Source: a virus (taxonomy: Duplodnaviria > Heunggongvirae > Uroviricota > Caudoviricetes). Taken from it: 48,932 nt of DNA. Each line of letters begins with the position of its first letter. Position 1 is the first letter of the stretch. Both the position numbers and the translations under genes were made by a program. The stretch lies in IMG/VR virus record IMGVR_UViG_640753024_000009; one strand, given 5' to 3'. The notes beneath the pieces are model-generated. The model was not told the origin of the DNA. It did no database searches and worked only from the letters and a program-made list of their open reading frames with translations. Below are positions 2,943 through 48,932 of this stretch, in pieces.

Positions 2943-4579
2943 CCCGCCGCCGCTGGTTTATCAAACATCGCACCACGGTTGTACGAACTCGCAACTTGTC
3001 TCAGCCCGTCGAGCACACCCGATGCAGCAGCCTGCTGTGTTGATTGTGGATCTGCCGCTCCGATAATATTGATTTCAATTTTATTGTTTTGCTCTGGCGC
3101 TGGAGTTGCGACTGCTTGTCTCAGCGCGTCAATATTCAACGTTGCTGAGTTTTGTGATTCAGGCGTTGAGCCTTTATTTATTAATCCAGTAAACGGGTTA
3201 GCAAACGAGAGCAGTGATTCAGCCTGTGATTTTGCACGAGCAAGACGTTCAGGGTGTCGCATATTATCCACGGCTTCGGCGGCTTTTGCTTTTGCAACAT
3301 TATCCGCCGCCATTCCTGGGTTTGGTGAATATTTTCCTCCGCCATCCATGAATTCCTGATACGCCTTATTATATTCTTCGTTATATACGCGCTGCTCCTC
3401 GTCTGTTTTCTCGTCCGGTATTAACCACTCCAGTTTTTTTACGACTGCCCAAATTATTTTTCCGAATTTAACGCACGCCTCGCCAAAACTGACTATCCCC
3501 TCCCACATTTTTTTCATATTTTCTGGCTTAACCCATTCTTTAATACTATCAACAACCCCCCCTTGATTCTCTTTAAACCAGGATGCCAGCCCGTCTCGCA
3601 TAGCGTCAAACGTCGGCGCGAGTTCCCCTCCGATTTTCCCGAGAGTATCTGCCAGCCCCGATGTGATTGCCCCCCACAGATTCGTGACGGATACGTGCGC
3701 GCGCGCTGCACCCTCAGCCCCTTCTTTCGTTAGCAGGTTTGATTTTTGAGCGTCCGACAGAGTCTGCTCCCAGCTTTTACCAGTCGCCCGCATATAAGTC
3801 ATTATTTTATTAGCTTCCCCCCCCATGAGCTGATCAGCCAGACTCGCCGCCTGTTGATCATCCTTCATTTCAGAGATACGCCGCATAACTTCATTGAACT
3901 GTTTTTCTCGATCCCATTTAGCCATCCGTTTTTTTGTCAGGCCAATTTGAAACAACATGGGGTTCAGGTTTTTTTCGTTTCCAACCTCCCCGATTTTATT
4001 AGTCAACTCCTCCGACAGATCTCCTACGTTTTCGCCATTCAGCCCTGCAGCTTTACCAATATTTTCCCACGCAGCGTATTTTTCGATGCCAACACCGTAG
4101 GACTTCGCCAGACCGAGTTTTTCTGACGTCTCTGCATTCATTGCCAACGCGCCAGCAGCCGCGCCGCCGAGCAGACCCACGGCCCCCAGCGTCCCCCATT
4201 TGATACCCCGTCCCGTGGCCCTCACCGCACCTGCGGCGGCTCGCCCTCCCCATTTTGCAGCACCTTTTGCGCGCCCCGTCCACTTCTCCAGCCGCTGTTT
4301 TTTGGCGAGCTGAGTATTCAGAGCTTCCTGGTCCTGTGTTGTCGCTTTTATCCGACGGTCCAGCTTTTGATACTGAGCAGATAAATCAGAAACGTCTTTA
4401 CCCGCCAGTTTCATTGCTGCGATTTTGTCTTTTAATTTATCCTGGCTTTTCGTTAATTTTCCGACAGTAGACGACGTCTGCCGAATTGCATCGTTGAGTT
4501 CTGTTGTACCGCGCCGAAACGACGGGTCTATTCTTCCCCCAAATACAACCTGCGTTTTAAAGTTTTGAGAAATAGCCAT
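2939..4579 (-). CDS. Tail tape measure protein
   Basis: 546-aa product, Ala/Gly/Lys-rich with coiled-coil-like segments; located between tail chaperone and U; GAGG upstream of ATG. Confidence 0.75.
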   Translation of the reverse strand: MAISQNFKTQVVFGGRIDPSFRRGTTELNDAIRQTSSTVGKLTKSQDKLKDKIAAMKLAGKDVSDLSAQYQKLDRRIKATTQDQEALNTQLAKKQRLEKWTGRAKGAAKWGGRAAAGAVRATGRGIKWGTLGAVGLLGGAAAGALAMNAETSEKLGLAKSYGVGIEKYAAWENIGKAAGLNGENVGDLSEELTNKIGEVGNEKNLNPMLFQIGLTKKRMAKWDREKQFNEVMRRISEMKDDQQAASLADQLMGGEANKIMTYMRATGKSWEQTLSDAQKSNLLTKEGAEGAARAHVSVTNLWGAITSGLADTLGKIGGELAPTFDAMRDGLASWFKENQGGVVDSIKEWVKPENMKKMWEGIVSFGEACVKFGKIIWAVVKKLEWLIPDEKTDEEQRVYNEEYNKAYQEFMDGGGKYSPNPGMAADNVAKAKAAEAVDNMRHPERLARAKSQAESLLSFANPFTGLINKGSTPESQNSATLNIDALRQAVATPAPEQNNKIEINIIGAADPQSTQQAAASGVLDGLRQVASSYNRGAMFDKPAAAG

Positions 4580-16745: not shown

Positions 16746-18712
<1,967 letters not shown>

Positions 18713-18813
18713 GAGTGTTCCCTTTGTGGTGTAGGAACCTTAAGGAAACAACATGTTGGGTGGAGCGGACAATCCAAATGGTGAATTACTGTCTTATATC
18801 ATTGGCGCTGACA

Positions 18814-19451
18814 ACTCCGCCGAGGGGATAGGTATCCTCGGCTATCCAGTACCCAACCGCGGCCCCGTTTTTATCGATATCAACACCGGCGCGGCGAAAT
18901 TGAGTGTCAGCTGCGTAGCCAGGATTTCGAATTCGTTTCGGTGAGACCATTTTGAATCGCGTCCGAAAAACGCTGCCGGCGCAGCTCTCCCACACCGGTT
19001 GTACGCAGGTTTCACCGTTGAACGCGTGAGTGGCCACGCCTTCGCGAATCATCATTGTGAACGTCCGTTTCCGCTCGATATCAATCGTGCAGTGAGGGTC
19101 CTCGGCGTATTCAGTCCACGCGACCTCAACGTCACGCGCCAGCGCCCTGGCGTCCTCGCGAGATATCCCGATGTAACGCCAGTTAGGGCGATAACTCAAC
19201 TTAAACAGATTGCCGACGATATGATCCTGATGCAGCTGCACGGCGTTCGACGCGACGCCGTTATTACGAACGAGATCGTCTGCTCGCGCGTTACCGCGAT
19301 AAAAATTAGGCAGCAGTGCCGCATCGGCGCTTTGCTGTGGTGCATTCCAGTCAATCAGCTGGCCACCGAAGCCGGGACCGCCGCCGTTATACCCCGCGTA
19401 ACGGCGTAGTGGCGTTTTACCGTCAGGCCCGAGCAACTGCTGAGCAGTCAT
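18814..19451 (-). pseudogene. Portal protein (lambda gpB family), N-terminal fragment truncated by the IS element
   Basis: LLGPDGKTPLRRYAGYNGGGPGFGGQL and LPNFYRGNARADDLVRNNG match the lambda B N-terminus; ORF runs into IS sequence and stops 9 codons later. Confidence 0.85.
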
Positions 19452-19681
19452 AATCGAACTCCCACGGGACGGCGGCGTCCCGTACTCAGACCGAGCTGTG
19501 ATTTCAGCTCGATAATGTACGTTCGGAGCTGTTCAATACTCGCCTGTGAGTATTGATAGCTCCGGTTATTTCCCGCTGAATCGCCGTGAGACAGCGATAC
19601 AGTCGATCTACCCGTTAATAATTTGTGCAGGGCAATTTCAGCTTCCAGCAGCCGTTCTGTTAAAACCTCGCGCGACATCAT
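19448..19681 (-). CDS. Head-tail joining protein W (lambda gpW family)
   Basis: 77 aa between terminase large subunit and portal; similarity to lambda W (LHKLLTG, YIIELKSQLG). Confidence 0.7.
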   Translation of the reverse strand: MMSREVLTERLLEAEIALHKLLTGRSTVSLSHGDSAGNNRSYQYSQASIEQLRTYIIELKSQLGLSTGRRRPVGVRL

Positions 19682-21642
19682 GAGCTCCCTCCGAGCATTC
19701 TGGCCATCTCCTCGAGAGACAGTTTGTTTTGTGATTTTTTCCGTTGCTCAGCGAGCGTCTCGAGATTGAGCTGGAAACGAATTTTACTGATACGTAGCGC
19801 TGCCAGCGCGTATACCCAGCAGTCGAGCGCCTCATTTCGCCGGCCCTGGTTGTCCCAGCGATAAACGACGCGACCGTTAATCAGTTTCGGGATCAGAACT
19901 TCAGAGACGAGCTGTTTTGCCTCTGTCGTGCCGAATATTTCGTCGTCGTTGGGAAAATGAATCGCACTTGGTGTCGCCGATTTAGAATCGGGTTCCAGCG
20001 GCAGGCGCATTGCGAGCAAATCTTTTGCCGTATCAGTACCGATTAACGACAAATAGACTTTATTCGCGTTACGTGTACGCGGCATATTTACGACTGGCTG
20101 ACCGTATGAACTCGCACCTTTAATTGGAATGACCCACAGCGGACCGAGTTTCAGCGAGCGGTTATAAACGACCTGCGCATCTATACCACCGGTATCCCAC
20201 GCCCAGCGACTGACGCCGATTGTGGTCCCGTCGCTGCGCCGGTATTGTTTGCGAATCACTCCGTCGACGCGCTGCAGCGTGTCCTCCTCGTCGTAGCGAC
20301 CGAGGACGATTGTTTTATCAATCAGCCAGCACTCCTCCTCCACTCCCCAGCCCCACACGTAACACTCGTAGCGACCGGACGTCTGAGAGTCGATGCCGCC
20401 GGTCAGATAAACAACACCGTCAGGAACCTGGCTGGCGTATTTTTCCCGGCGATTAACCAGAATATCGTGCTCCAGCTGCTCGCTGGCTACGTCACTCCAG
20501 AGTTCGCCGAGCGTCGTGTTATGAAACGTCTTTTCTTTGAGCGGATCGCCCTTCGCTTTCAGCCACTCGCTGACAATCTCGCCCCAGCCGTCGAGATTCA
20601 GCGAATACATGGCGTTTATCACGATCGCCGCGTGTTTCGGCGCGCGAACGACACCACCGTCGTGATCAAAAAAACGAATACCGTCCCGCGTCCAGGTGCA
20701 GTCCTCTGCTATCCAGCGCCCCGCGAGCTCCATTTTTTCGAGATCGCGATAGTAAAAATGCTCAGGACAGTGGCAGCACTGGTAATACGCGGACGACGAT
20801 TTCGCCTCATTTGTCTGCAGGCTATTATCCCATTTGAGGCCATATTCGATGCCGTCGAAACCAAATACCAGGACCTGCTCCTCGCCACAATGCGGACATT
20901 TCAGGTAAAAACGAAACGTCAGGTCAGCGGCATCCTCCAGCATTTCAATATGACTTTTTCCGGTGACGGTTGGCGTCGAGCCGAAAATCGCCTTCGGGTA
21001 CGCTGCCCCTTTAATTCGAACGAGCGCCAGTTCGATGGGCGAGCCCTCGCCTTTGCCTTTTTTGGCAACTTCCAGCGGCCAGCCGTCAACTTCGTCACCC
21101 TCGACAACCTGTTTCGTTAGTCGCCGGAAATTTCCTGGTGCACTCGCGCCGCGAAAATCAATAATCGCGCCGCTCATTTCTTTACGCTGGAGATTGTTAC
21201 GCTCGTTGCTTTTATCCCAGTCGGGGAAAATTTTCTGAATCACCGGCATTTCGGCGATAGCGGGGTCAACCTCGTCGGCAACAAATCCATCCGATTCGTC
21301 ATCGATAGGCTGATAGACCACGGCACTACGTTTTTTGTGCTCAGCGAAATAGAGCAGCGCCGCGACGAGTATTTTTGTATAACCGAGACGAGCTGATTTG
21401 CGAACAGACACGATTTTTATCGCGTCGTTAGTCATCATATTGAGCATCACTACCTGGACCGGCTGAGTCGTCCAGTGGCCAGCGATGTGGCTGGAGCCCT
21501 CAGGGAGATAAAAATATTTATCAGCCCACTCAACCCCCGTCATCGGTATCGTCACGCGCAAGGGATTCAACCCTGTCGAGATCGCGTTCGATATCGCTGA
21601 CATCGTAATCGCTGAAGTCGACTCGTATGTCTGCCAGTTCAT
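19678..21642 (-). CDS. Terminase large subunit (lambda gpA family)
   Basis: 654-aa ORF with lambda A-like motifs (VEWADKYFYLP, CPHCGEE, TTLGE, GIDSQ, NEALDCWVYALAALRI); true start may be an internal Met (21603 or 21543). Confidence 0.9.
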   Translation of the reverse strand: MNWQTYESTSAITMSAISNAISTGLNPLRVTIPMTGVEWADKYFYLPEGSSHIAGHWTTQPVQVVMLNMMTNDAIKIVSVRKSARLGYTKILVAALLYFAEHKKRSAVVYQPIDDESDGFVADEVDPAIAEMPVIQKIFPDWDKSNERNNLQRKEMSGAIIDFRGASAPGNFRRLTKQVVEGDEVDGWPLEVAKKGKGEGSPIELALVRIKGAAYPKAIFGSTPTVTGKSHIEMLEDAADLTFRFYLKCPHCGEEQVLVFGFDGIEYGLKWDNSLQTNEAKSSSAYYQCCHCPEHFYYRDLEKMELAGRWIAEDCTWTRDGIRFFDHDGGVVRAPKHAAIVINAMYSLNLDGWGEIVSEWLKAKGDPLKEKTFHNTTLGELWSDVASEQLEHDILVNRREKYASQVPDGVVYLTGGIDSQTSGRYECYVWGWGVEEECWLIDKTIVLGRYDEEDTLQRVDGVIRKQYRRSDGTTIGVSRWAWDTGGIDAQVVYNRSLKLGPLWVIPIKGASSYGQPVVNMPRTRNANKVYLSLIGTDTAKDLLAMRLPLEPDSKSATPSAIHFPNDDEIFGTTEAKQLVSEVLIPKLINGRVVYRWDNQGRRNEALDCWVYALAALRISKIRFQLNLETLAEQRKKSQNKLSLEEMARMLGGSS

Positions 21643-25251: not shown

Positions 25252-25923
25252 TTATACGCAAACATCGTCTAAATGGTTCTGATAGTGATGCAAAGTTGCA
25301 AGAAGTGCCATTTCATCAAGTGCTCTCACCGCCTCTTTCATTCCTGCCCAGTGCGGGGAGTATGTTTCGCACCAGGTGGAACGAGAAACAGACAACATTC
25401 CAGCTAGCGCAGACCCGGCCATCTCCTTAAAATCCTCGCGTTTATTTGCTGCTGCAACCGCCTGCACGGACAACCACACCAACGAAAGCAGGCGCTTAAC
25501 TACTTTTCTCTGAGTTGACGCGGGGATGTGTCCTTTATAGCGACTCCAGGCAGCCTCACAAATAGCTGTTTGGTGTTTGAATGCCAGGTTACCACCGTAG
25601 CAATAACGCAACCACGCTTGCTGACTTGCATCCAGCGAGTTCACAGAACGCCGCCAGGATGAATCAGCAAATTCAAAATCATTCATCGGCGGCGCGGGGC
25701 GACGTCTGCTAAAACTTTCCAGAGCGTAAACTGGCGTAACCAGAGCATCAACGGTCCGGTCCTCCAGTTGCACACGATGAATATGTTTGCGTGGGTATGC
25801 GTTTTTATCTGCCGGTGGGTGCTCACACAATGCTTCCAGTTGCCCCTTAGAACCACCAGACAAATCCCGCAATACAGCGCGCAGTTTTATGCGGGTATAT
25901 TCCAATAAATACTCGTTACTCAT
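25252..25923 (-). CDS. Late-gene antiterminator, Q-like
   Basis: 223-aa protein immediately upstream of the lysis cassette and downstream of YbcO-like gene; assignment by position and size. Confidence 0.5.
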   Translation of the reverse strand: MSNEYLLEYTRIKLRAVLRDLSGGSKGQLEALCEHPPADKNAYPRKHIHRVQLEDRTVDALVTPVYALESFSRRRPAPPMNDFEFADSSWRRSVNSLDASQQAWLRYCYGGNLAFKHQTAICEAAWSRYKGHIPASTQRKVVKRLLSLVWLSVQAVAAANKREDFKEMAGSALAGMLSVSRSTWCETYSPHWAGMKEAVRALDEMALLATLHHYQNHLDDVCV

Positions 25924-27927: not shown

Positions 27928-27954
27928 TAAAAAAGAAGACCCGCCGAAGCGGGT
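27928..27954 (-). terminator. Intrinsic terminator (minus strand)
   Basis: ACCCGC-TTCG-GCGGGT hairpin followed by CTTCTTTTTT on the minus strand. Confidence 0.5.
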
Positions 27955-28368
27955 TAGTAAATCATTTGTGCCAAATTATAAGACCACACCGTAAGCTTTT
28001 ATATGCGTCCTATGGTTATAGCTCATATTATATGCTTCAAAAATATCTATTCTTTTGTTCTAACGTCAACACCTACCCTTAAAAGATTAATTCTCTAAGA
28101 ATGAGAGAATGTTGTGTGTATTAGATAAGATATGAGCTGACACATCTATGGCGTGAAGACAAATTTAATCTGACAGTCTACTTTGTTGCCAGAGCGGATA
28201 TCGCAAGCGTTAAGTCAGATATTTGAAAACGCATCGTTATCCTGGTTGGGATACTTGCACTACTTTTAGGCGTACTGCTATCTTGCACAGTTATTCAAAG
28301 GTAATTTTTTCTTTATTAGTAGCCTACTTCCAGGGGCTTGTACAACTGACAAAACGAGGGAGATCCCC

Positions 28369-29148
28369 ATGAGCAACAAAGATTTTTCACTTTTTTATTT
28401 TGCAACCATTGATCGGTCTTACTTCCTCGACAAACACAATTTTTATGTTGCTGAAGCCAGAAAGCGTCTATTTTCGCAGTTTAGCGATTCTGATCTTGAA
28501 GCTGAAGCCAGGCAGAGAGAACAAGATTACTATGAGGCCGCCGGTAAGCGTTTTGACCCCGATTATGACGACGAAGGGGCTATCTGTGAACAGGCTCATG
28601 ATGAAGGAATTTCACATTGGATTGCTCTCAGTGATATGAAAAATACGGTTTCACTTGCTCTGACAGCAGGAATGTTTCATCAGTTCGACAAGGAACTTAG
28701 AGAGAAGTGTATCAGAGAATTCAGCCATTGGCTCGACGCTAAATCCGTAACATCGATGATCTGGGACATTAGCTTCCCAAGGCTAATTGAAATTCTAGAA
28801 TGGATTGGGATGGATATCACCAGCAAGGCTTATTACGAAAAAATCGATGCCTGTCGCCAAGTGGTTAATGTTTATAAGCACGGTGATGGCCATGCCCATC
28901 GGGTGCTTTCCGTCGCGCATCCTGAGTATTATCAGGATATCAATATTCCAAGAGGCTACAGATTTAGTCTACGTCATGAGCAACTTGAGGTTACAGAAAC
29001 ACAGTTTATAGAGTTTGCAGATGCGATTACAGCTTTCTGGAATGATATCCCAACATACTGTATGCGCTCAGCTATTCGGGAAGAACCTGAATGGATAAAA
29101 GGCGAATATAAAAAACATGAGAAGAAAGTTAAAATGCTTCAGGACTAA
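28369..29148 (+). CDS. Hypothetical protein (259 aa), accessory island cargo
   Basis: SD GAGGGA 8 nt upstream of ATG at 28369; opposite strand to phage backbone; no recognised domain. Confidence 0.55.
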   Translation: MSNKDFSLFYFATIDRSYFLDKHNFYVAEARKRLFSQFSDSDLEAEARQREQDYYEAAGKRFDPDYDDEGAICEQAHDEGISHWIALSDMKNTVSLALTAGMFHQFDKELREKCIREFSHWLDAKSVTSMIWDISFPRLIEILEWIGMDITSKAYYEKIDACRQVVNVYKHGDGHAHRVLSVAHPEYYQDINIPRGYRFSLRHEQLEVTETQFIEFADAITAFWNDIPTYCMRSAIREEPEWIKGEYKKHEKKVKMLQD

Positions 29149-29233: not shown

Positions 29234-29339
29234 AACTTCCGCTCCTCGCTCACAGCGAACTTTCAACTCAGTTAGCTTGCCCGCTTCGTACCAAAAGCGG
29301 GCATTGCTAACATCTATCTCCATCAATCTGTGGGAACAG
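29234..29339 (+). repeat. Structured island repeat, copy 1
   Basis: Shares CTCGCTCACAGCG box (29245-29257), hairpin GCCCGCTT...AAGCGGGC (29279-29302), GCTAACA and GTGGGAACAG boxes with copies 2 and 3. Confidence 0.7.
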
Positions 29340-29626
29340 CTCGCCGTAATAGCACATTGAATCCTATGTCTAAAAGCAGATGTTCTGGTTTGCCGGGAAA
29401 TTTACAAAATGACGGCGTCTCTTGTTAGAGGTTCTCCCTGCTTCACACTGCTGATTCTTCATGGATTTTAGTATAATTAGTGAAAAAAATTTTTTTGGTT
29501 GTTATCATATACATGAGGACTTCTTCAGAAGAACTGAGAAAAATTCGGGGTTCACTTAACACAATGACAATTAAGAAGATTAACTGTCTGGTAAGTGATT
29601 ATTTTATTCATTAAAAAACAAACATC

Positions 29627-30289
29627 ATGATAATTGACTTTATAAAAAGCAAGGAAGCCTTGCTAATATTGGCAATAACTGTTCTATCTTATATGTCTGC
29701 AATTTCATTTGAATATGGCTATGCATATCATTTTGATTATCCTATGGAGTTTATAACGTTAGATTCTAAATTTTTATTCGTGGGTATGTCATATTTATTT
29801 TTTAATATAATTTGTGTTATGTTGATGTTTTTTACTCCATGGCCTGAAAGTAAAGTAAAAGCAGTTAAAGTTACTGCAGTTACAGTTTTTATCATGATTG
29901 TTTTTATTGTTCAGTCTTATAGACATAAGACTGAATATGGTGGTTTTTTCGTTTTAAGTTTATCGATAGCAACAGTTACTTATATTATATACAAAATTGT
30001 TAAAAATCATAAACGTAATCCAAGTTATTTAATTTGGTCTGCAACCCTTCCCCTTATTGCCATAATGACATTTAGTTTCTTAATTGGTTTACAACAAGCG
30101 TCATTAAAAAAAGAATTTAGTTACTTTCATGATCAATCTAAAGACTACGTGATTATTAGGTTGTATGACGGTAACCTTGTCGCTAAAGAAGTAAATATAA
30201 AAGAGCGCAAGCTAGGGAGTGAGATATTATATATACCTAGCTATAACCCAGCCCCTATAACGTTAAATAAAATTAAAATAGAACAATAG
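29627..30289 (+). CDS. Multi-pass membrane protein (220 aa), very AT-rich
   Basis: At least four hydrophobic helices; low-GC coding sequence; flanked by repeat copies 1 and 2. Confidence 0.6.
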   Translation: MIIDFIKSKEALLILAITVLSYMSAISFEYGYAYHFDYPMEFITLDSKFLFVGMSYLFFNIICVMLMFFTPWPESKVKAVKVTAVTVFIMIVFIVQSYRHKTEYGGFFVLSLSIATVTYIIYKIVKNHKRNPSYLIWSATLPLIAIMTFSFLIGLQQASLKKEFSYFHDQSKDYVIIRLYDGNLVAKEVNIKERKLGSEILYIPSYNPAPITLNKIKIEQ

Positions 30290-30432
30290 ATTCATATAGT
30301 GGCCTTATGAAAAATAGGTCACTATCGTTGATATTTCATATGAATTTTTAACGACCTTGGTAGTAAAATTATCGTAAATCCCCTACATAACAAGACCATT
30401 TACTATAGATCTGTTTTACTCTCAATAAAATC

Positions 30433-30532
30433 AACTTCCGCTCCTCGCTCACAGCGGACCTTCAGTTTTTGTCCGCTTCGTGTCAGAAGCGGAAGTAGCT
30501 AACAACAGCCTATGTTGATTCAAGGGGAACAG
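30433..30532 (+). repeat. Structured island repeat, copy 2
   Basis: AACTTCCGCTCCTCGCTCACAGCG block identical to copy 1; hairpin TCCGCTTC...GAAGCGGA (30472-30493); GCTAACA; GGGGAACAG (30524-30532). Confidence 0.7.
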
Positions 30533-30611
30533 GTCACTGGGTTAATCTAATTATGTCCCTTTAGAACCATCTTTCTTAAGTGAATATATTTTCACTTTAT
30601 TTTCTACTGCC

Positions 30612-31991
30612 TCAGTCATAAGGTTTGTTTTTGGCTTTTGACATCATGAGAAGGAAATATGAAGGGTGGCTCTTTATTTCTGAAGAATGGCTTGTAATAT
30701 TAAAGACATCTTTTAGAATCGTAAAAGCTCCTGTAGCCAACGACACTGGATTTGGTGCACCAATAAAACCTATCAATGAAGGCACACTGTTAAGAAAAAG
30801 TTCTTTTTTACTCTTCCGCTTATAGGCTTGTATTTTTTGCTCAATATCTGTCAATCCTTCATCCCACACCCGCTCGACAAAATGTTGATTTATTAGTTGT
30901 CTCTTATATGGATCACTTTCTGCTTCTATATCATACGCAGCTTCACGTAGTACAGAGCGGAAAGAATTAAAACTCGGCTCGTAGTCAGTTCTAATTTTGT
31001 AGAGTTCACTTGGAGTCAGTCCCTCTAAGAATGGAACGTCTATAGAGAGTTTAACCCTCTGAACTTCATTCTTTTGATCAAGTTTACGAAGAATCTCTCC
31101 ATGAAACGGGCAATATGCCCCCAGGGATGCTCTACATGAATGCGCTTGGTTAAGGTCAGTAATAAGGTTTTTATAATGAAAGAGAACCGTACGGTTTTTT
31201 GCTCCCTGCACCCACCGTTCATAACTTTTTTTTCCGCTATGATTTCCCATGACAAGCTCCATAGATATGGAGCCATCATCATTATCAATGGCATTTTTTA
31301 TATGTTGATACATATATCCATTTGTATATAAACTTTCACAGTCTTTAATTTCCAACATAATTTCATTAGATAAAACATTTTTGTTTAATAACCGAATTTT
31401 ATTTGTATTACCTAGACGTTCTATATTCTTTACGGATAGTCTATTTTCATAAAGACGGGCAATGTTAGGAGGGAGATATCGATATATAAAATTAGCATCA
31501 GAGTTATCGTCTAAAATTCCATTGGCCCTCTCCGAATCTTTAATAGAAGATTCGCTGCGTACAAAAACGATAAACTCACCACGGATAAGATCAAAGTTTT
31601 CTTTAGCAAACCTGATAAATCTAGCAATTTCCTTCCTGAGATGTTCAACCTTCTCTTTTCTATCGCTTACAATAATTTTTTCAAATGCATTTTCTGTTAG
31701 ACTCACTCTGTATCGTAGGCTCAATGAATACAGAACATCATCAAGAATGACTCTGTCCATTGAAAACAGTCCACTCTTATACCTTTCAATATTACGATTT
31801 CCCGCCATGTAAACATTTAGCCGAGACTCCTGTACAGAATTTGCTTGCTCGATAATCAGTGAATCTATTCTTTTATTATATTCATCTAACTCAATTAGCA
31901 ATTCATTCAATCCAATATTTTCATATTCCTGATCTAAAAGTCGATCAACCCAGAAAAGGCTTTCTGTGAGGGCATAGAGGTTGTTGTACAT
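30612..31991 (-). CDS. Hypothetical protein (459 aa), AT-rich
   Basis: AGGA 7 nt upstream of ATG at 31991; convergent with the membrane protein gene; flanked by repeat copies 2 and 3; no recognised domain. Confidence 0.6.
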   Translation of the reverse strand: MYNNLYALTESLFWVDRLLDQEYENIGLNELLIELDEYNKRIDSLIIEQANSVQESRLNVYMAGNRNIERYKSGLFSMDRVILDDVLYSLSLRYRVSLTENAFEKIIVSDRKEKVEHLRKEIARFIRFAKENFDLIRGEFIVFVRSESSIKDSERANGILDDNSDANFIYRYLPPNIARLYENRLSVKNIERLGNTNKIRLLNKNVLSNEIMLEIKDCESLYTNGYMYQHIKNAIDNDDGSISMELVMGNHSGKKSYERWVQGAKNRTVLFHYKNLITDLNQAHSCRASLGAYCPFHGEILRKLDQKNEVQRVKLSIDVPFLEGLTPSELYKIRTDYEPSFNSFRSVLREAAYDIEAESDPYKRQLINQHFVERVWDEGLTDIEQKIQAYKRKSKKELFLNSVPSLIGFIGAPNPVSLATGAFTILKDVFNITSHSSEIKSHPSYFLLMMSKAKNKPYD

Positions 31992-32150
31992 ATCAGTTCC
32001 TTTTTACCAGGCTTCAGTCAGAGTACACTATCATTTTACATTTAAATGTACTTCCAAGCATCATGCTGTTAGTGCCGGATTATAACACTTGGCACCCGTA
32101 TGTTTGGATAACAAACTGCGTATAATCCTTGTGAGTTGTGATGTCTGTTT

Positions 32151-32250
32151 CTCGCTCACAGCGGGTCTTCAGTTGTTCGTCCACTCTGTGCCAGGAGCGG
32201 ACATTGATTATTCCTCACTGTAAAAATCTTAATGCTAACTAGTGGGAACT
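32151..32250 (+). repeat. Structured island repeat, copy 3
   Basis: CTCGCTCACAGCG (32151-32163); hairpin GTCCACTC...GAGCGGAC (32179-32202); GCTAACT and GTGGGAAC (32242-32249). Confidence 0.65.
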
Positions 32251-32271: not shown

Positions 32272-33123
<852 letters not shown>

Positions 33124-33203: not shown

Positions 33204-34439
33204 ATGACTAAGCGAAATAAAACCCCAAAATTTAACTTGGACAAAGCTCGCAAAAAAGAGATTCGCGCAGCCTTAACCAGCGTGGGTATGACCCCTCAAC
33301 ATGATGGCTGGGCGGATTTGTTTATGTACGCTTATACAGATGGCAGCAATTTAAACGGTTTGCAATTGGCCAAAGCCTTATCAGTGCATCCAACACTGAT
33401 AAATGGTTTATCGCGCGGCATCAAATTAAAACCAGAGAAAGCGCTCTCCAAAAAACGACCATCAAAACCTACGCTGGCCGATAAACGCCGCGAGGCCAAA
33501 CAGAAGGTCAATATGGGCTGGGAAGCGCTGATTCGCACTATGCCTATGCAAAAGCCAGGCGCACGCAAAAACCCTGAAACAGAAGCCCTTTGGGAGAATG
33601 CCCGTCGCCGTGGCACGTCCCAGGCCAGCACGCCAGCATTTACGCCGACAATCATCCCGCGCAAGGTTTCCGCTCAAATCAACACCGAATTACCAGGCCT
33701 GCAATCAACGCAGATGGAAACACCGAAACGGTATGATTCTGTGAGCATGACATCAAAAGTTACGACAAAGCTGGATAATCGCGTCCTACAGGATTTTCTG
33801 GCAAAACACATTCCAGCCAGCCAGCGTCGTGATGTTGAGCTTTATATCCACAAACACCAGCATGAAGCCACCACGACCATTGAACTGGTGCAGCGGTACC
33901 TGGATGATCAGGAAGAAAAGCAAATCATCCGAGAAGCCGAGAAGCTGGCCGACGTTGTTCCGGAACTGGTAGCCGATGATCGAATCATCATGTCGCAGGA
34001 AGTAGTGGTCGTCGTGGAGGAAGAGAAACCCGCGCCCGCGCTTGGCCAACCTGTCAAACTCCACAGTACCCGAACCGCGCAGCGCATCGTTGAGCAGCGC
34101 GACACGACGGCGCATATGCAGTTTGTTGAATGGGTATGGAATAATTTTGCTGGCCGTTGCGCGGTGACTGGCTGGCAGAACGGCGAACGATTGCAAGCGG
34201 CGCACATTGAGCCAGCTACCTCAGGCAATTTTAGCGCTGATAATGGCCTGTTGTTGACTCCAACGATACACGACTTACTAGACGCAGAGCTGATGGCCGT
34301 CAACCCTGAAACAATGACCGTACATTTTGCCCCAGGTATTGAGCTCGGCGCGATGTTTGAAGGCAAAGTGATTGAGCCTAAATTATGGCCGCTGAACATG
34401 GCCGCGTTGGTTAAACGCTGGAAAGAACGGAAATTCTGA
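33204..34439 (+). CDS. HNH nuclease domain protein (411 aa)
   Basis: C-terminal CAVTGWQNGERLQAAHIEPATSGNFSADNGLLLTPTIHDLLD fits an HNH motif; basic N-terminal 300 aa unassigned; 80 bp downstream of the GIY-YIG gene on the same strand. Confidence 0.6.
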   Translation: MTKRNKTPKFNLDKARKKEIRAALTSVGMTPQHDGWADLFMYAYTDGSNLNGLQLAKALSVHPTLINGLSRGIKLKPEKALSKKRPSKPTLADKRREAKQKVNMGWEALIRTMPMQKPGARKNPETEALWENARRRGTSQASTPAFTPTIIPRKVSAQINTELPGLQSTQMETPKRYDSVSMTSKVTTKLDNRVLQDFLAKHIPASQRRDVELYIHKHQHEATTTIELVQRYLDDQEEKQIIREAEKLADVVPELVADDRIIMSQEVVVVVEEEKPAPALGQPVKLHSTRTAQRIVEQRDTTAHMQFVEWVWNNFAGRCAVTGWQNGERLQAAHIEPATSGNFSADNGLLLTPTIHDLLDAELMAVNPETMTVHFAPGIELGAMFEGKVIEPKLWPLNMAALVKRWKERKF

Positions 34440-34570
34440 TTAAATATTTTAATCACCATCGTGCTGGCTGCCATCGCCTATATGGCGTTGCCTCATCACT
34501 CGAATCCGAATGCATAATCTTATCCGAGTGGGGAAAGTGCACCACCAAAACATCGAAACAGGAATAGAAA

Positions 34571-35131
34571 ATGAACGGAATATCAAAAATCATCTTAGCA
34601 CTGACCGCTGGATTTACGCTGTCCGGATGTGTAAGCCATACCCAAAAAAATTCACAACCAGATCCGGCTGCAATCGAGGCGGCAAAACTTGCGCAGTACA
34701 CCGATTCACAGCTTTGCCAGGCAGAAGATAATATAGAGCCATTGCTCAACCTTAATCCATCATCTCATCCTGAATTTAATGAAAATTATCGCCGCGCCCA
34801 GGCTATTAAAAAGGTGATCGCCTCTCGTAATTTAAGCTGCTACCGCCTGAAAATGGAGAGGGCAGAACAGGCCACACCAGCACGCCCGTTAAGCCCACGA
34901 CAAAAACAAGCGAGGGCATCCGCTGTTTGCCAGGCTTACGCCCAGCGTACCCGATTTGCGGATCCGACAGTCACATTTCAGATGTGCGGGAAAGGATTCC
35001 AGTCTACTTCGGCAAAATGTAAGGAAGATTTGGCGAGTTTTGAACGTGAGTCTCAGAAACTTAGAGGTACGGCCAGAGCGGAATATGTTGAAATTAGCAG
35101 TGCATTTCGGGCAGGCTGTACTTTAAAATAA
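34571..35131 (+). CDS. Lipoprotein (186 aa)
   Basis: Signal peptide with lipobox LTAGFTLSGC; AGGA upstream of ATG. Confidence 0.6.
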   Translation: MNGISKIILALTAGFTLSGCVSHTQKNSQPDPAAIEAAKLAQYTDSQLCQAEDNIEPLLNLNPSSHPEFNENYRRAQAIKKVIASRNLSCYRLKMERAEQATPARPLSPRQKQARASAVCQAYAQRTRFADPTVTFQMCGKGFQSTSAKCKEDLASFERESQKLRGTARAEYVEISSAFRAGCTLK

Positions 35132-36684: not shown

Positions 36685-37479
36685 TCAAAATGCTGAATCA
36701 GCAACAGATACAGCCGACTTTTCCCCCATTAGCATCAATTTATCCAGCGTCATACTTCGCAGGTTGTCGCTGTGGATCACCAGATACCCTGCCCGCTCAG
36801 CGATCTCTTTGAAAGCGTCAAAAGTCATCAGATGTTCGCCTTTGGCAACATGGCGCATCCTGGTCACTTTTCCATTTTTGATAGTGGTGATAAAAGAAAA
36901 ATCTGGAATGGTTGGCTGCTTTTCATCGAGCAGCAGGCAGTGGATGTATTCAATCGCTTCTAACATTTGCGCCTGTGACAGTTGTTCTATGTGAGAGACG
37001 GCGAAGCGTTGATGAATCATGGTATAAGCATCGGGATACATCATGCCTTTCTTGCCGACCAGCATATTAACGGCATCACGTAAGGGGGTGCGGTCATCGG
37101 TGGTTGTACTCCGCCTCTCTGGACGCTGGCTAAAATAGCAATCTTCAAGCTTTTCGAAAACTTCCCAGGCCTGTTCTGTTTCCAGCATTTTGGCATGGCG
37201 AGCTGCGCCGCATTCTGTCCAGAGGATGAGAGAGCGGACATTTCTGGCGATTTTCACAGGAGGTCTTAAAGACATGCTGTGCTTAAATTCGCGCAACTCC
37301 TCACCTTCGAGCAAAAAGTAATGCTTCCCGACCACGAATCGCTCTGAGTTCCGGTTATGGTTTTTACGAATGTAATCCGGCTCTGTGCCATAGAGGTTCG
37401 CGAGTAATTCGGTGGTGAGGACGGGAAGTTGGTTGTGGATAATCGGGGAGATGGCTGCTGCGGATACTTGAGTTGTCAT
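36685..37479 (-). CDS. Antirepressor-like protein with N-terminal ORF6N/KilA-N-type DNA-binding domain
   Basis: LTTELLANLYGTEPDYIRKNHNRNSERFVVGKHYFLLEGEELREFK resembles the ORF6N domain of phage antirepressors; AGGA upstream of ATG at 37479. Confidence 0.55.
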   Translation of the reverse strand: MTTQVSAAAISPIIHNQLPVLTTELLANLYGTEPDYIRKNHNRNSERFVVGKHYFLLEGEELREFKHSMSLRPPVKIARNVRSLILWTECGAARHAKMLETEQAWEVFEKLEDCYFSQRPERRSTTTDDRTPLRDAVNMLVGKKGMMYPDAYTMIHQRFAVSHIEQLSQAQMLEAIEYIHCLLLDEKQPTIPDFSFITTIKNGKVTRMRHVAKGEHLMTFDAFKEIAERAGYLVIHSDNLRSMTLDKLMLMGEKSAVSVADSAF

Positions 37480-37636
37480 AGCGATTTCCTTTTAGTCGGA
37501 TAATCACCCCCCTCAGGTGCAAATCTTTGGGTGGTGAGACATGCAGGGTTTGCACTACCGGCTAAAAGGACCCGGCGAGCCTTTCGACTCCCCTACACGC
37601 CCCACCATAAATCGCGGATGTGGCTGTGCGCACGAC

Positions 37637-37659
37637 AATAAAAAAGACGCTGGCGCGTC
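37637..37659 (-). terminator. Intrinsic terminator ending the rightward early (replication/nin) transcript
   Basis: Palindrome GACGCTGGCGCGTC followed on the minus strand by TTTTTTATTG. Confidence 0.5.
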
Positions 37660-37751
37660 GTTGTCGCCTTTTAGATATCCGGGGTGCAAATCCCGGCAAC
37701 CGATTTTGCGGCTGCGCGGAAACTATAGCCCCGGGCTTTTTCTAAGTCAAT

Positions 37752-46657: not shown

Positions 46658-46838
46658 ACTGACCGGTTACCAGTTCCCGTCAAAACAATGCGGTGCCCTG
46701 ACCCGTGCCGGGATCTCTTATGTAAAACGCCGCGACGGGCGACCTCGCGTCACGTGGACGCATGTAAACGCCGCGCTGTCCGGAGCAAGGTCCGTGCAGA
46801 TTGCCGAAGAAGAACAACCTAATTTTGATGCAATCTGA
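46623..46838 (+). CDS. xis: Excisionase-like DNA-binding protein
   Basis: 71 aa; LLTDQELVELTGYQFPSKQ motif; GAGGA SD; stop overlaps the integrase start. Confidence 0.55.
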   Translation: MNDLLTDQELVELTGYQFPSKQCGALTRAGISYVKRRDGRPRVTWTHVNAALSGARSVQIAEEEQPNFDAI

Positions 46839-47866
46839 TGAGCAGAACACGAAAAAGCGCGGAAGATAATAAGCTGCCACCCCGCGTTTATAAAAACAAA
46901 TACAGCTATTATTTCAAACCAACGCCCCGAGAGTGTATTACGCTGGGTAAAATTAATGATCTGTCAATTGCTCAGGTATGGGTGAAATACGAAGAGATCC
47001 TGAATGATGCTATTGATGTCATGACGTTCAGTAAACTCTGGAACAAATTTCTCAACAGCACCTACTATCTGGAACTCGGTCAGCGTACACAAAAGGATTA
47101 TCTGCAGCACCAGAAGAAATTACTCGCCGCGTTCGGGAAAATGAAAGCCGACAACGTAAAACCTGCTCACGTGCGGCTGTATATGGACAAGCGGGGGCTG
47201 AAAAGCAAAACACAGGCGAACCATGAAAAAGCCAGTATGTCGCGAGTATTCCGCTGGGGATACGAACGCGGATACGTAAAAGGGAATCCATGCCAGGGCG
47301 TCAGTAAATTTTCCCTCAAGCCCCGCGACTACTATTTCACGGACGAGGAATATATCGCAATTTATCAGGAGGCATCTCCCGTTTTACAGTGCGCGATGGA
47401 GATCGCCTATCTGTGCGCCACGCGGATCGGCGATATACGAAAGCTGACGTGGGATCAGGTAATGAGTAAGGGGTTGTTTATCCAACAGGGTAAGACTGGC
47501 AAAAAGCAGATCAAACAGTATTCAGAGCGACTGACGTTCGCACTTGAGCAGGCGAAATCGTTGGGAGGACAACATTTCGTGGTCTGTAACAAATATGGCG
47601 GGCAATACAGCTATACCGGATTTAACGATATCTGGCGTAAAGCCAGGGCGGCGGCAAGTGAAAAGCTGGGCTACCCGATTACGGGAACGTTTCACGATTT
47701 AAAAGCGAAGGGGATCTCAGACTACGACGGAAGCAGTAAAGAAAAGCAGTTGTTCTCTGGTCACAAAACAGAGGCGCAAGTGCTGACGTATGATCGCAAA
47801 CCCGCAGTAACTCCAACTCTGGATATTCCGGTGCTGGATGTCACAGTTCTGAGCAGAAACCCGTGA
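46838..47866 (+). CDS. int: Tyrosine integrase (lambda Int family)
   Basis: 342 aa; catalytic-domain motifs (CATRIGDIRKLTW, HDLKAKG, GHKTEAQVLTY); adjacent to the tRNA gene. Confidence 0.9.
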   Translation: MSRTRKSAEDNKLPPRVYKNKYSYYFKPTPRECITLGKINDLSIAQVWVKYEEILNDAIDVMTFSKLWNKFLNSTYYLELGQRTQKDYLQHQKKLLAAFGKMKADNVKPAHVRLYMDKRGLKSKTQANHEKASMSRVFRWGYERGYVKGNPCQGVSKFSLKPRDYYFTDEEYIAIYQEASPVLQCAMEIAYLCATRIGDIRKLTWDQVMSKGLFIQQGKTGKKQIKQYSERLTFALEQAKSLGGQHFVVCNKYGGQYSYTGFNDIWRKARAAASEKLGYPITGTFHDLKAKGISDYDGSSKEKQLFSGHKTEAQVLTYDRKPAVTPTLDIPVLDVTVLSRNP

Positions 47867-47951: not shown

Positions 47952-48041
47952 TGGCGGAGAGAGGGGGATTTGAACCCCCGGTAGAGTTGCCCCTACTCCG
48001 GTTTTCGAGACCGGTCCGTTCAGCCGCTCCGGCATCTCTCC
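47952..48041 (-). tRNA. serU: tRNA-Ser (anticodon CGA), serU-like; prophage attachment site
   Basis: 90-nt sequence folds as class II tRNA: acceptor GGAGAGA/TCTCTCC plus GCCA, anticodon stem CCGGT/ACCGG with loop CTCGAAA, long variable arm, T-loop GGTTCAAATCC. Confidence 0.9.
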
Positions 48042-48134
48042 GTTCAGATGGTTGCCATGATGCCAGGAAATTTGGCATTTTAACAGTCCCTGTCCGTGCA
48101 ATTTTGTTCAAGTGACGAGTTTGCGAGCAAAACG

Positions 48135-48932
48135 ATGATTAAGTGGCCCTGGAAAGTACAAGAATCAGCACATCAAACTGCCCTTCCCTGGCAGGAAGCA
48201 CTATCGATCCCCCTTTTAACGTGTCTGACGGAACAGGAACAAAGCAAATTAGTCACTCTTGCCGAACGTTTTTTACAGCAAAAGCGGCTTGTTCCTTTAC
48301 AGGGCTTTGAACTGGATTCATTAAGAAGCTGCCGGATAGCACTTCTATTTTGCCTACCCGTTCTGGAGTTAGGACTGGAATGGCTGGATGGTTTTCATGA
48401 AGTCTTAATTTATCCTGCGCCATTTGTGGTCGATGATGAATGGGAAGACGATATCGGTCTGGTGCATAACCAACGTATTGTTCAGTCAGGTCAGAGCTGG
48501 CAGCAAGGGCCTATCGTTTTGAACTGGTTGGATATACAAGATTCTTTTGATGCTTCTGGTTTTAACCTGATTATTCATGAAGTCGCTCATAAGCTGGACA
48601 CCCGTAACGGCGATCGCGCCAGCGGAGTTCCCTTTATTCCGTTGCGTGAGGTTGCTGGCTGGGAACACGATCTTCATGCTGCAATGAACAACATTCAGGA
48701 AGAAATCGAATTAGTTGGCGAGAATGCGGCGAGCATTGATGCTTATGCTGCCAGTGATCCTGCTGAATGTTTTGCCGTACTTTCTGAATATTTCTTTAGC
48801 GCCCCAGAACTTTTTGCTCCTGGTTTCCCTTCATTGTGGCAACGTTTCTGCCAATTTTATCAACAAGATCCTTTGCAGAGACTGCATCGCACTAATGATA
48901 CAGACTCGTTTTCGGCGACGAATGTTCATTAA
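48135..48932 (+). CDS. mtfA: Mlc titration factor MtfA (host chromosomal gene)
   Basis: Protein from ATG 48135 begins [28 protein letters not shown] and contains zinc-peptidase-like HEVAH; matches enterobacterial MtfA; track ORF starts at an upstream GTG. Confidence 0.9.

Follow-up and report, generated by a model that had tools for sequence, protein, structure and literature searches.

Probable composite recombination sites delimiting an orphan cassette array in a lambdoid prophage of Escherichia coli

Investigation of three repeats at positions 29234-32250 of the Caudoviricetes record IMGVR_UViG_640753024_000009 (48,932 nt; this whole stretch is referred to here as the window), which is part of the E. 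coli CFSAN061769 chromosome NZ_CP042969.1 (reverse strand), suggests that they are composite site-specific recombination sites and that the genes between them form an orphan array of mobile cassettes in the variable (moron/defense) region of a lambdoid prophage, a reading to which we give a probability of roughly 0.8. Each repeat consists of two core-type sites in inverse orientation, an L site (box1-TCGCTCA-box2) and an R site (box3-GTGCCA-box4), and the evidence for the proposed function comes from the anatomy of these sites, the position of homology breaks between related loci and the association of the sites with a small tyrosine recombinase.

Anatomy of the repeats and extent of the site family

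The 13-mer CTCGCTCACAGCG occurs as an exact match at 29245, 30444 and 32151 only, against an expectation of 0.00 from 100 shuffles, and the three repeat copies, all on the plus strand, separate four blocks of unrelated genes (Table 1). Box1 to box4 are all versions of one 7-mer, GTCCGCT/AGCGGAC, which alternates in orientation so as to form two inverted pairs, the left pair enclosing CCTCGCTCAC and the right pair enclosing YYGTGCCAGR. Since the same motif is present in all four boxes, the element can be drawn either with two local hairpins or with a single long one, and over ~80 nt it matches itself on the opposite strand. An initial annotation of this DNA had reported three same-strand copies at the boundaries of AT-rich cargo genes, and this is borne out: the copies fall between genes of 34-35% GC, although copy 3 begins earlier (32140, with a degenerate left box from 32143) than the 32151 given there, and copy 2 runs to 30535. 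The boxes described as common to the copies are likewise present, with GCTAAC(A/T) in all three, GTGGGAAC in copies 1 and 3 and the form AGGGGAAC in copy 2, while two related sites of the window, a simple site and a terminal half-site, had been overlooked.

A hidden Markov model (HMM) built from the window copies was iterated over the loci (numbered with the prefix L) of 80 recombinase-carrying genomes and over IMG/VR contigs taken from a pattern scan. This gave a family of 77 full-length copies, all distinct, from islands of enterobacteria and from prophage contigs of IMG/VR, of which the 61 with unambiguously cut boxes were the basis of the pairing-model and spacing counts; among 5,426 complete E. 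coli genomes, 420 had homologs of copy 1, each at 1-3 places. Throughout the family TCGCTC is invariant and the GTGCCA columns are 92-98% conserved, and the core-to-core distance measures 42 nt in 41/61 copies and stays at 40-43 nt in 57/61, including copies whose spacers are unrelated in sequence. The textbook core site of a tyrosine recombinase has an invariant centre of 6-7 nt between inverted boxes, and the members of this family have this form, with 7-nt inverted boxes flanking near-invariant cores to which the exchange points map. The fixed 42-nt spacing, equivalent to four helical turns, would fit a protein-DNA complex on duplex DNA better than the loop of a hairpin.

Regarding sequences further downstream, a box GGRGCAGRTCA, often after TTAATCAAY, was detected 37-40 nt past the R core in 18/72 copies and in 0/72 upstream controls. 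In the window it is found at 30523-30535 and, in degenerate form, at 29330-29337 and 32242-32249, the motif G(T/G)GGGAAC of the initial annotation being a version of it.

Breakpoints in the two cores

Comparison of family members with one flank in common and the other flank different revealed homology breaks in both cores. Regarding the L core, copy 3 of the window and the copy at L110:5247 are identical from this core to the right, a stretch that includes the PD-T4-3 gene, while the left boxes and the upstream cassettes differ. Similar L-core breaks were found between L134 and L163 and between L004 and L005, and L160, L005 and L098 have a common left cassette up to TCGCTCA and diverge thereafter. 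Regarding the R core, switches at GTGCCA were detected between L207 and L113, L093 and L098, and L098 and L150; the Providencia loci L084 and L087 diverge after ...CCCTGTGCCA, four Providencia loci are alike up to ...CAGCCCTGTGCCA and have different genes beyond, and across E. coli the homology to the array of strain Nissle 1917 begins or ends at R sites. These comparisons show that exchange takes place inside either core, and each cassette is consequently passed on together with the composite site downstream of it.

An unoccupied and an occupied version of one site were also detected. In Nissle 1917 a simple R site has the order leader-GTCCGCTCTGTGCCAG/GAGCGGACTGTCC, the slash marking the point at which the two versions part. 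In FDAARGOS_536 the same leader runs into GTCCGCTCTGTGCCAG/TAGCGGACGTTAC, which is followed by 3.2 kb with two cassettes (DUF2971; GNAT and a hypothetical gene) and a composite site between them, and the R part of the final composite site, ...GTGCCAG/GAGCGGACTGTCC, leads back into sequence with 99.7% identity to Nissle over 1500 nt. The occupied version is the product that would be expected from a precise insertion via R-core recombination. The first site of an array is a simple R site and the last one a hybrid.

A similar picture is given by prophages related to that of the window. L088 (from an ST131-type strain), L089 (strain S42) and L110 all share the window's flanks and a common backbone, with homology extending on the left until 27955 or 28042 and on the right from 35175 or 35183, the positions at which homology with L088/L089 resumes; the same junction closes the terminal repeats of L088 and L089. 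Their cargo differs from that of the window, yet is bounded by the same site family, so that homologs of the repeats do flank different genes in related prophages, as the initial annotation had thought worth checking. Among the roles it had considered, that of recombination joints that let cassettes be swapped is the one supported by the breakpoints in two invariant cores, the occupied/unoccupied pair and the differing cargo between the same flanks.

Small tyrosine recombinase linked to the sites

Repeats of this family are present within a few kb (<=10 kb in L002-L009, L016 and L019) of a gene encoding a 200-aa recombinase. This is so in Nissle 1917 and WP7-S17 as well as in all Enterobacterales loci that were fetched through this gene. 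Nearly all of the repeats have the same strand as the recombinase gene, whether they precede or follow it, and the gene itself lies within a site-bounded, cassette-like module. The protein, named merely 'site-specific integrase' in the source annotations, matches the Pfam family Phage_integrase (E=5e-19), while its Xer-like and FimB-like scores are weak and its nearest PDB structures are XerD and XerA (E ~1e-3). The translation, read by eye, contains the usual catalytic residues R..K..HxxR..H..Y and has ~35 residues before the catalytic domain. Relatives with 60-98% identity were detected in at least 546 species of the Gamma- and Betaproteobacteria.

Directly 3' of the recombinase stop codon there is a GC-rich hairpin followed by an R centre and a right box. 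In the Enterobacterales this post-stop site reads CAGGGCTGC-AACA-GCAGCCCTG/TGCCAGAAGCGGAC, and the sequence past GTGCCA varies by locus. Clade-specific centres with the same architecture and a hairpin of their own were found in Pseudomonas/Halomonas (CGGCCA) and in Alteromonadaceae-type loci (TGTACG), in each case with further such sites nearby; since counts of a generic CGGCCA-type pattern in GC-rich genomes were uninformative (47 on the plus strand and 42 on the minus strand), only sites read in context were used. These associations are strong circumstantial evidence that the 200-aa, catalytic-domain-only tyrosine recombinase is the cognate enzyme.

The post-stop hairpin is an element other than the repeats flagged in the window. 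Within the first 50 nt after the stop codon (L004-L083) its sequence is wholly different between taxa, its pairing is kept and it always abuts the crossover core, as in CAGGGCTGC/GCAGCCCTG, AGCGACGGTC/GRCCGTCGCT and CCTCGACCC/GGGTCGAGG, which by eye is genuine covariation. In the Providencia locus L085, genes for tyrosine recombinases of 425, 322 and 337 aa follow one another at 16832-20077 (a GInt/RIT-type trio). The corresponding place in its sister loci L084 and L086 is taken by an intact DUF932 gene, and in L085 DUF932 is found only after the trio, at 20228.

Regarding the window itself, no homolog of the small recombinase was detected in it by tblastn, nor on the chromosome NZ_CP042969.1, for which a chimeric query of a unique cassette gene and the integrase matched one place only. 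The earlier statement that no recombinase lies near the repeats therefore holds in so far as the prophage integrase at 46838-47866 is the only one in the window, but it is misleading, as elsewhere the family is tightly linked to the dedicated 200-aa enzyme. As a cognate recombinase is thus encoded neither in cis nor elsewhere on that chromosome, the window array would be mobile only if the enzyme were supplied in trans. The R cores of the window are, in order, GTTGCCA, GTACCA, GTGTCA, GTGCCA and GTGCCA, while all three L cores are intact; given that the first three R cores are rare variants and that two spacers are shortened (35 and 36 nt), the array is probably partly frozen. Other tyrosine recombinases need identity of the overlap, and if this applies here most R x R events within the window array would be blocked.

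Proposed mechanism and points against it

In the mechanism proposed here, duplex DNA would recombine by ordinary strand exchange in the 6-7-bp overlap. Cassettes would be removed, inserted or exchanged through R x R or L x L events, with prophages, islands and probably transient circles as the partners.

Several points weigh against this. The link between recombinase and sites is one of co-location and of correspondence between sites and clades only, and many arrays, including that of the window, have no recombinase nearby (it is present within the fetched stretch in 2/39 viral loci). Some cassette edges lie away from sites, namely the left edge of cassette C relative to O157, at 30565, and the right edge of PD-T4-3 relative to L110, at 33185. 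An empty version of the prophage hotspot was not found in the 5,426 E. coli genomes, in which a chimeric query of leader and right junction returned no record spanning both halves. The element is, moreover, a quasi-palindrome able to fold, and the scheme does not account for two different cores standing side by side.

Folding, covariation and alternative explanations

The initial annotation had held that the stems of the repeats are always paired and that compensatory substitution in them indicates selection on secondary structure. However, the stem of copy 3 contains an A.C mismatch (GTCCACTC versus GAGCGGAC), and across the 61 family copies the signal for compensatory substitution is not convincing. 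With a local-hairpin model (61 non-identical copies) 81.1% was paired compared to 80.2% in shuffles (15/500 as high), with 26 double-change cells compared to 16.2 (18/500 as high), while a long-hairpin model gave 83.4% compared to 82.8% (100/500 as high), with compensatory changes not in excess. In permutations box3:box4 reached z=1.9 and the remaining pairings stayed at <1. The positions flanking the R centre, which are T:A or C:G among the window copies, form 29 Watson-Crick pairs where 24.7 are expected, a correlation that is not significant, and departures from the consensus are mostly one-sided. When the copies are folded as single-stranded DNA, the local hairpin forms in copy 1 (z -6.4) and the long one in copy 2 (z -4.1), whereas copy 3 is no better than its shuffles (z -0.7), and the minimum-energy fold is local in 32 and long in 27 of the 61 copies. 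The complementarity of the stems is accounted for by the four copies of one box that alternate in orientation, which keeps both arms near one consensus. Structured RNA or covariation as the organizing principle was thus rejected, as neither the two pairing models nor the permutations nor the individual folds gave a convincing signal; an extension of the copy 1 hairpin by GCTAAC/GTTAGC was also discarded, as it is not conserved in the family and its halves are split by the R crossover.

The capacity to fold could still matter if the sites acted as folded single strands, as integron attC and CTX-phage attP(+) do, although we regard this as unlikely. The L half would then pair with the R half in one hairpin, the paired boxes forming a pseudo-duplex core site and the conserved central mismatches setting the choice of strand. 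The self-match of the element on the opposite strand, the long-hairpin fold of copy 2 and of the 27 copies mentioned above, and the complementarity of the L and R centres at 5/7 positions, with the same two mismatches throughout, are all consistent with such a mode of action. The same is true of the GC-rich hairpin next to the integrase gene, which varies by taxon, keeps its pairing and abuts the core, and of copies that have swapped box2/box3 for an unrelated perfect hairpin (e.g., AGCTGCCC/GGGCAGCT at L005:2536). Yet the pairings on which it depends, box1:box4 and box2:box3, show no covariation in the 61 copies (the 100/500 shuffles as high given above), and pairing between the two central regions is below that of shuffles (48.5% versus 50.8%). 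Furthermore, attC has one crossover point whereas breakpoints here fall in the L core as well as in the R core, the core spacing is fixed at ~42 nt with no variable loop, and there are simple R sites of the duplex type, with perfect arms of 12 bp, that are in use.

That another enzyme acts on these sites is improbable. The candidates would be host XerC/XerD, whose action has been proposed for the pdif modules of Acinetobacter, and the large integrases, of P4 type or from phages, that lie near some sites. Arrays are often without the small integrase, a Providencia simple R site lies just 3' of a P4-type integrase gene, and the nearest named relatives of the small integrase are, weakly, Xer proteins. 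Nevertheless, the cores of the sites change together with the clade of the small integrase, in dozens of genera the stop codon of its gene is immediately followed by an R half-site, and P4-type and phage integrases are absent beside most sites. The boxes (GTCCGCT) and the cores also appear unlike those of dif.

There is very little to be said for the repeats being structured RNAs. These could be a small RNA family or cis-regulatory leaders for the cassettes that follow, both put forward in the initial annotation, or else terminators or insulators. Copies 1 and 2 fold well, as described above, and the GGRGCAGRTCA box, which is present in a quarter of the members, could be a leader or ribosome-binding element. 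Rfam scans of the region, however, at the gathering threshold and at E<=1, gave no match on the repeats, covariation is not significant, copy 3 is unstructured, the copies have no terminator-like T-run, the downstream genes are on either strand and the breakpoints fall within the element. The least credible explanation is that the repeats are miniature inverted-repeat transposable elements, remnants of insertion sequence ends or classical intergenic repeats (REP, ERIC), since, despite a size of ~80-110 bp and terminal inverted repeats AACTTCCGCT...AGCGGAAGTT, they occupy just 1-3 places in each of the genomes that have them, which are 8% of those of E. coli, all mapped copies are in islands or prophages with constant orientation relative to the integrase, homology breaks inside the element and not at its ends, and no target-site duplications are visible in the sequences read.

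The window array and its prophage

The features of the array are listed in Table 1.

Table 1. Sites, leader and cassette genes of the array in the window (positions on the window).
Feature	Position	Strand	Details
Conserved leader before the first array site	28037-28171	+	Two CTGACA(C/G) direct repeats
Simple R-type site S0, array start	28172-28199	+	GACA-GTCTACT / TTGTTGCCAG / AGCGGAT; degenerate core GTTGCCA
Cassette A gene	28369-29148	+	259 aa, function unknown; open reading frame (ORF) and RefSeq coding sequence (CDS)
Repeat copy 1, composite L+R	29234-29339	+	Family HMM E=6e-16; core-to-core 42 nt
Copy 1, L site			TTCCGCT 29237-43, core TCGCTCA 29246-52, AGCGAAC 29254-60
Copy 1, R site			GCCCGCT 29279-85, core GTACCA 29288-93, AGCGGGC 29296-302
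Copy 1, downstream boxes			GCTAACA 29306-12, GTGGGAAC 29330-37
Cassette B gene	29627-30289	+	220 aa, predicted multi-pass membrane protein; ORF and CDS; only a 7TMR-DISM_7TM match, below threshold
Repeat copy 2, composite L+R	30433-30535	+	Core-to-core 35 nt, shortened spacer
Copy 2, L site			TTCCGCT 30435-41, core TCGCTCA 30444-50, AGCGGAC 30452-58
Copy 2, R site			GTCCGCT 30470-76, core GTGTCA 30479-84, AGCGGAA 30487-93
Copy 2, downstream boxes			GCTAACA 30497-503, GGGGAACAGGTCA 30523-35
Cassette C gene	30612-31991	-	459 aa, function unknown; opposite strand to repeats
Repeat copy 3, composite L+R	32140-32250	+	Core-to-core 36 nt
Copy 3, L site			GTCTGTT 32143-49 (degenerate), core TCGCTCA 32152-58, AGCGGGT 32160-66
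Copy 3, R site			GTCCACT 32179-85, core GTGCCA 32188-93, AGCGGAC 32196-202
Copy 3, downstream boxes			GCTAACT 32234-40, GTGGGAAC 32242-49
Cassette D, first gene, PD-T4-3	32317-33123	+	GIY-YIG anti-phage defense protein; PADLOC E=3e-136; Pfam LEM-3_GIY-YIG
Rest of last cargo block	33204-35131	+	HNH-domain protein 33204-34439; 186-aa protein 34571-35131
Terminal R half-site, right junction with phage backbone	35178-35201	+	GCCTACT / CGGTGCCATA / TACAGCC

Site S0 is homologous to the simple site of L088, GACAGTCCGCT-CTGTGCCATA-AGCGGACTGTC, and the homology to L088 ends within it, at 28198. The leader before S0 is 87% identical to the leaders before the simple sites of L088 (the ST131-type prophage) and L110, and can be aligned to that of the Providencia island L087. 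Regarding such leaders in general, simple R sites are preceded by ~70-160 nt of conserved sequence that ends ...AATCTAAYCTGACAG and has two CTGACA(C/G) direct repeats ~32 nt apart, with instances in the window, at L088:13747-13885, at L087:~4040-4105 and at L002:~1700-1783. One leader type is thus common to an E. coli prophage and a Providencia island, and it could carry accessory binding sites or a promoter.

The protein of cassette A had no match in Pfam, PADLOC or NCBIfam. A copy of cassette C with 91% identity is present in the O157:H7 genomic island L210, where the homology ends at window position 32162, at the L core of copy 3, and PD-T4-3 is also found 3' of a repeat copy in L110 (97% identity) and L172 (82%). 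No family site was detected between PD-T4-3 and the genes for the HNH-domain and 186-aa proteins. Homing by GIY-YIG/HNH genes was considered as a source of the repeats and dropped, as the same site family flanks many unrelated cassettes.

The window represents a lambdoid-type prophage with genes for tail, head, terminase, lysis and the antiterminator Q (25252-25923, minus strand). The repeat-bearing stretch is low in GC (34-35% versus ~50%) and is situated between the Q-side genes and an LprI-family/ORF6N block. In a megablast search of the region against a phage database the sole match was 956 nt of the left flank, while the right flank is conserved from CCATATACAG in 462 genomes. The minus strand at 27939-27954 has a strong hairpin of terminator type, ACCCGCTTCGGCGGGT and a T-run after it, whose end coincides exactly with the point where homology to the ST131-type prophage stops (27955), the left edge of the variable region. 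Just past the ORF6N-domain gene (36685-37479), adjoining Rfam matches to C4 antisense RNA (73.6 bits) and isrK (76.2 bits) are present at 37527-37715 (minus strand); this pair resembles the antisense immunity/anti-repressor control module of P1/P7-type phages, here inside a lambdoid-type prophage. The prophage integrase (342 aa, 46838-47866), a tRNA (47955-48041, minus strand) and a Peptidase_M90 gene (48096-48932) probably mark the attachment end.

Cargo of other arrays

Regarding the content of other arrays, PADLOC matches were found for 7/20 proteins sampled from their cassettes (ThsB, PDC-S32, PDC-S33, PDC-S39 and PDC-M60). The study that defined the PDC families, as genes lying embedded within other defense systems, does not take up a mechanism of recombination (10.1101/2024.01.29.577857). 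One cassette protein has an LA2681-like HEPN domain, and further cargo includes iron uptake genes, a DHFR-family protein, GNAT proteins and hydrolases. The cassettes hold 1-4 genes in either orientation and with their own upstream regions.

At L002:6045-11636 in E. coli Nissle 1917, and also in ST131-type genomes, a widespread iron-uptake operon encoding a TonB-dependent receptor and an ABC transporter is bounded by family sites; we take this operon to be the fbp locus of uropathogenic E. coli (UPEC). In many genomes that lack the small integrase the homology to the operon starts exactly at the left box of an R site, which indicates that a whole virulence-associated operon behaves as a cassette. 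In E. coli O157:H7 17B6-2, downstream of the array with the homolog of cassette C, L210:9609-15381 encodes a type I restriction-modification system with darT/darG between the S and R subunit genes, and no family sites were detected around these embedded darT/darG genes.

Comparison with known systems and significance

Beyond the window, these observations lead us to put forward, tentatively and with rather less confidence than for the array itself, a widespread and so far undescribed gene capture system of the Gamma- and Betaproteobacteria that parallels integrons. A 200-aa recombinase and a double-core site (TCGCTCA/GTGCCA, 42 nt apart) would shuffle gene cassettes, including anti-phage defense systems and whole operons such as UPEC fbp, among islands and prophages, and orphan arrays would be its footprints. 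No published description of this recombinase or site was found in open-access papers and bioRxiv, searched also with the site sequences and protein accessions.

Similarly to integrons, an apparently dedicated tyrosine recombinase has a primary site beside its gene (the R half-site after the stop codon, with divergence past GTGCCA), tandem cassettes have an imperfectly palindromic downstream site, the first site is simple and the later ones composite, orphan arrays without integrase occur (as in CALINs, the attC clusters lacking integrases) and the cargo is rich in defense genes. The likeness in cassette layout is partial: arrays of 2-4 site-delimited cassettes occur, but their genes are on either strand and some cassettes are multi-gene, and unlike in integrons the cassettes bring their own upstream regions and the recombinase gene itself is in a cassette-like module. 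IntI is a tyrosine recombinase of ~320 aa with an extra IntI-specific domain, whereas the recombinase described here has the catalytic domain only, scores 15.9 bits against TIGR02249 integrase_gron (cutoff 265) and is not an IntI. The sites, judged by reading their sequences and not with an attC covariance model, lack the RYYYAAC/GTTRRRY signature and are not attC sites; they have two crossover cores instead of one and a fixed spacing of ~42 nt instead of a variable loop. The primary site is at the 3' end of the recombinase gene, with cassettes running in the direction of the gene, whereas attI is upstream and divergent.

The pdif modules of Acinetobacter are also bounded by inversely oriented tyrosine-recombinase core sites, with junction sites shared between neighbors and movement between replicons. 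A dif or pdif site consists of XerC and XerD arms of 11 bp and a 6-bp spacer; pdif modules use these XerC/XerD sites, one per junction, and host Xer, whereas the present arrays imply a dedicated recombinase, their sites appear unrelated in sequence to those of pdif, and each junction has two heterospecific cores 42 nt apart. In CTX-phage attP(+)/XerCD, two inversely oriented core-like sites are similarly able to pair into a hairpin with a mismatched centre, but there a single-stranded phage genome integrates at dif by means of host Xer, while here both cores are duplex-type breakpoints. FimB and FimE resemble the small recombinase in size (~200 aa) and in having no N-terminal core-binding domain, although the similarity is weak (25.5 bits, cutoff 222) and FimB/FimE invert a promoter segment and do not move cassettes. 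In the rAID-1 clusters of Bacteroidales, a non-IntI tyrosine recombinase heads arrays of small, unrelated protective genes (bioRxiv 10.1101/471110). These belong to another phylum and carry type VI secretion system immunity genes, and the likeness concerns the general arrangement.

If the proposed system is real, its 200-aa recombinase and two heterospecific 24-bp sites would make an attractive cassette-exchange tool, and its searchable sites could mark new defense genes, given that about one third of the sampled cassette proteins match defense or candidate-defense families. It would represent a second, independent, integron-like form of gene capture, with a range that takes in E. coli, Proteus, Providencia and Pseudomonas along with many environmental taxa. 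It would help to explain how orphan arrays are assembled in prophages and would provide a concrete mechanism, with enzyme, sites and exchange points, for what has until now been recognized as a pattern, namely the constant change of sets of defense and fitness genes in the hotspots of prophages and islands.

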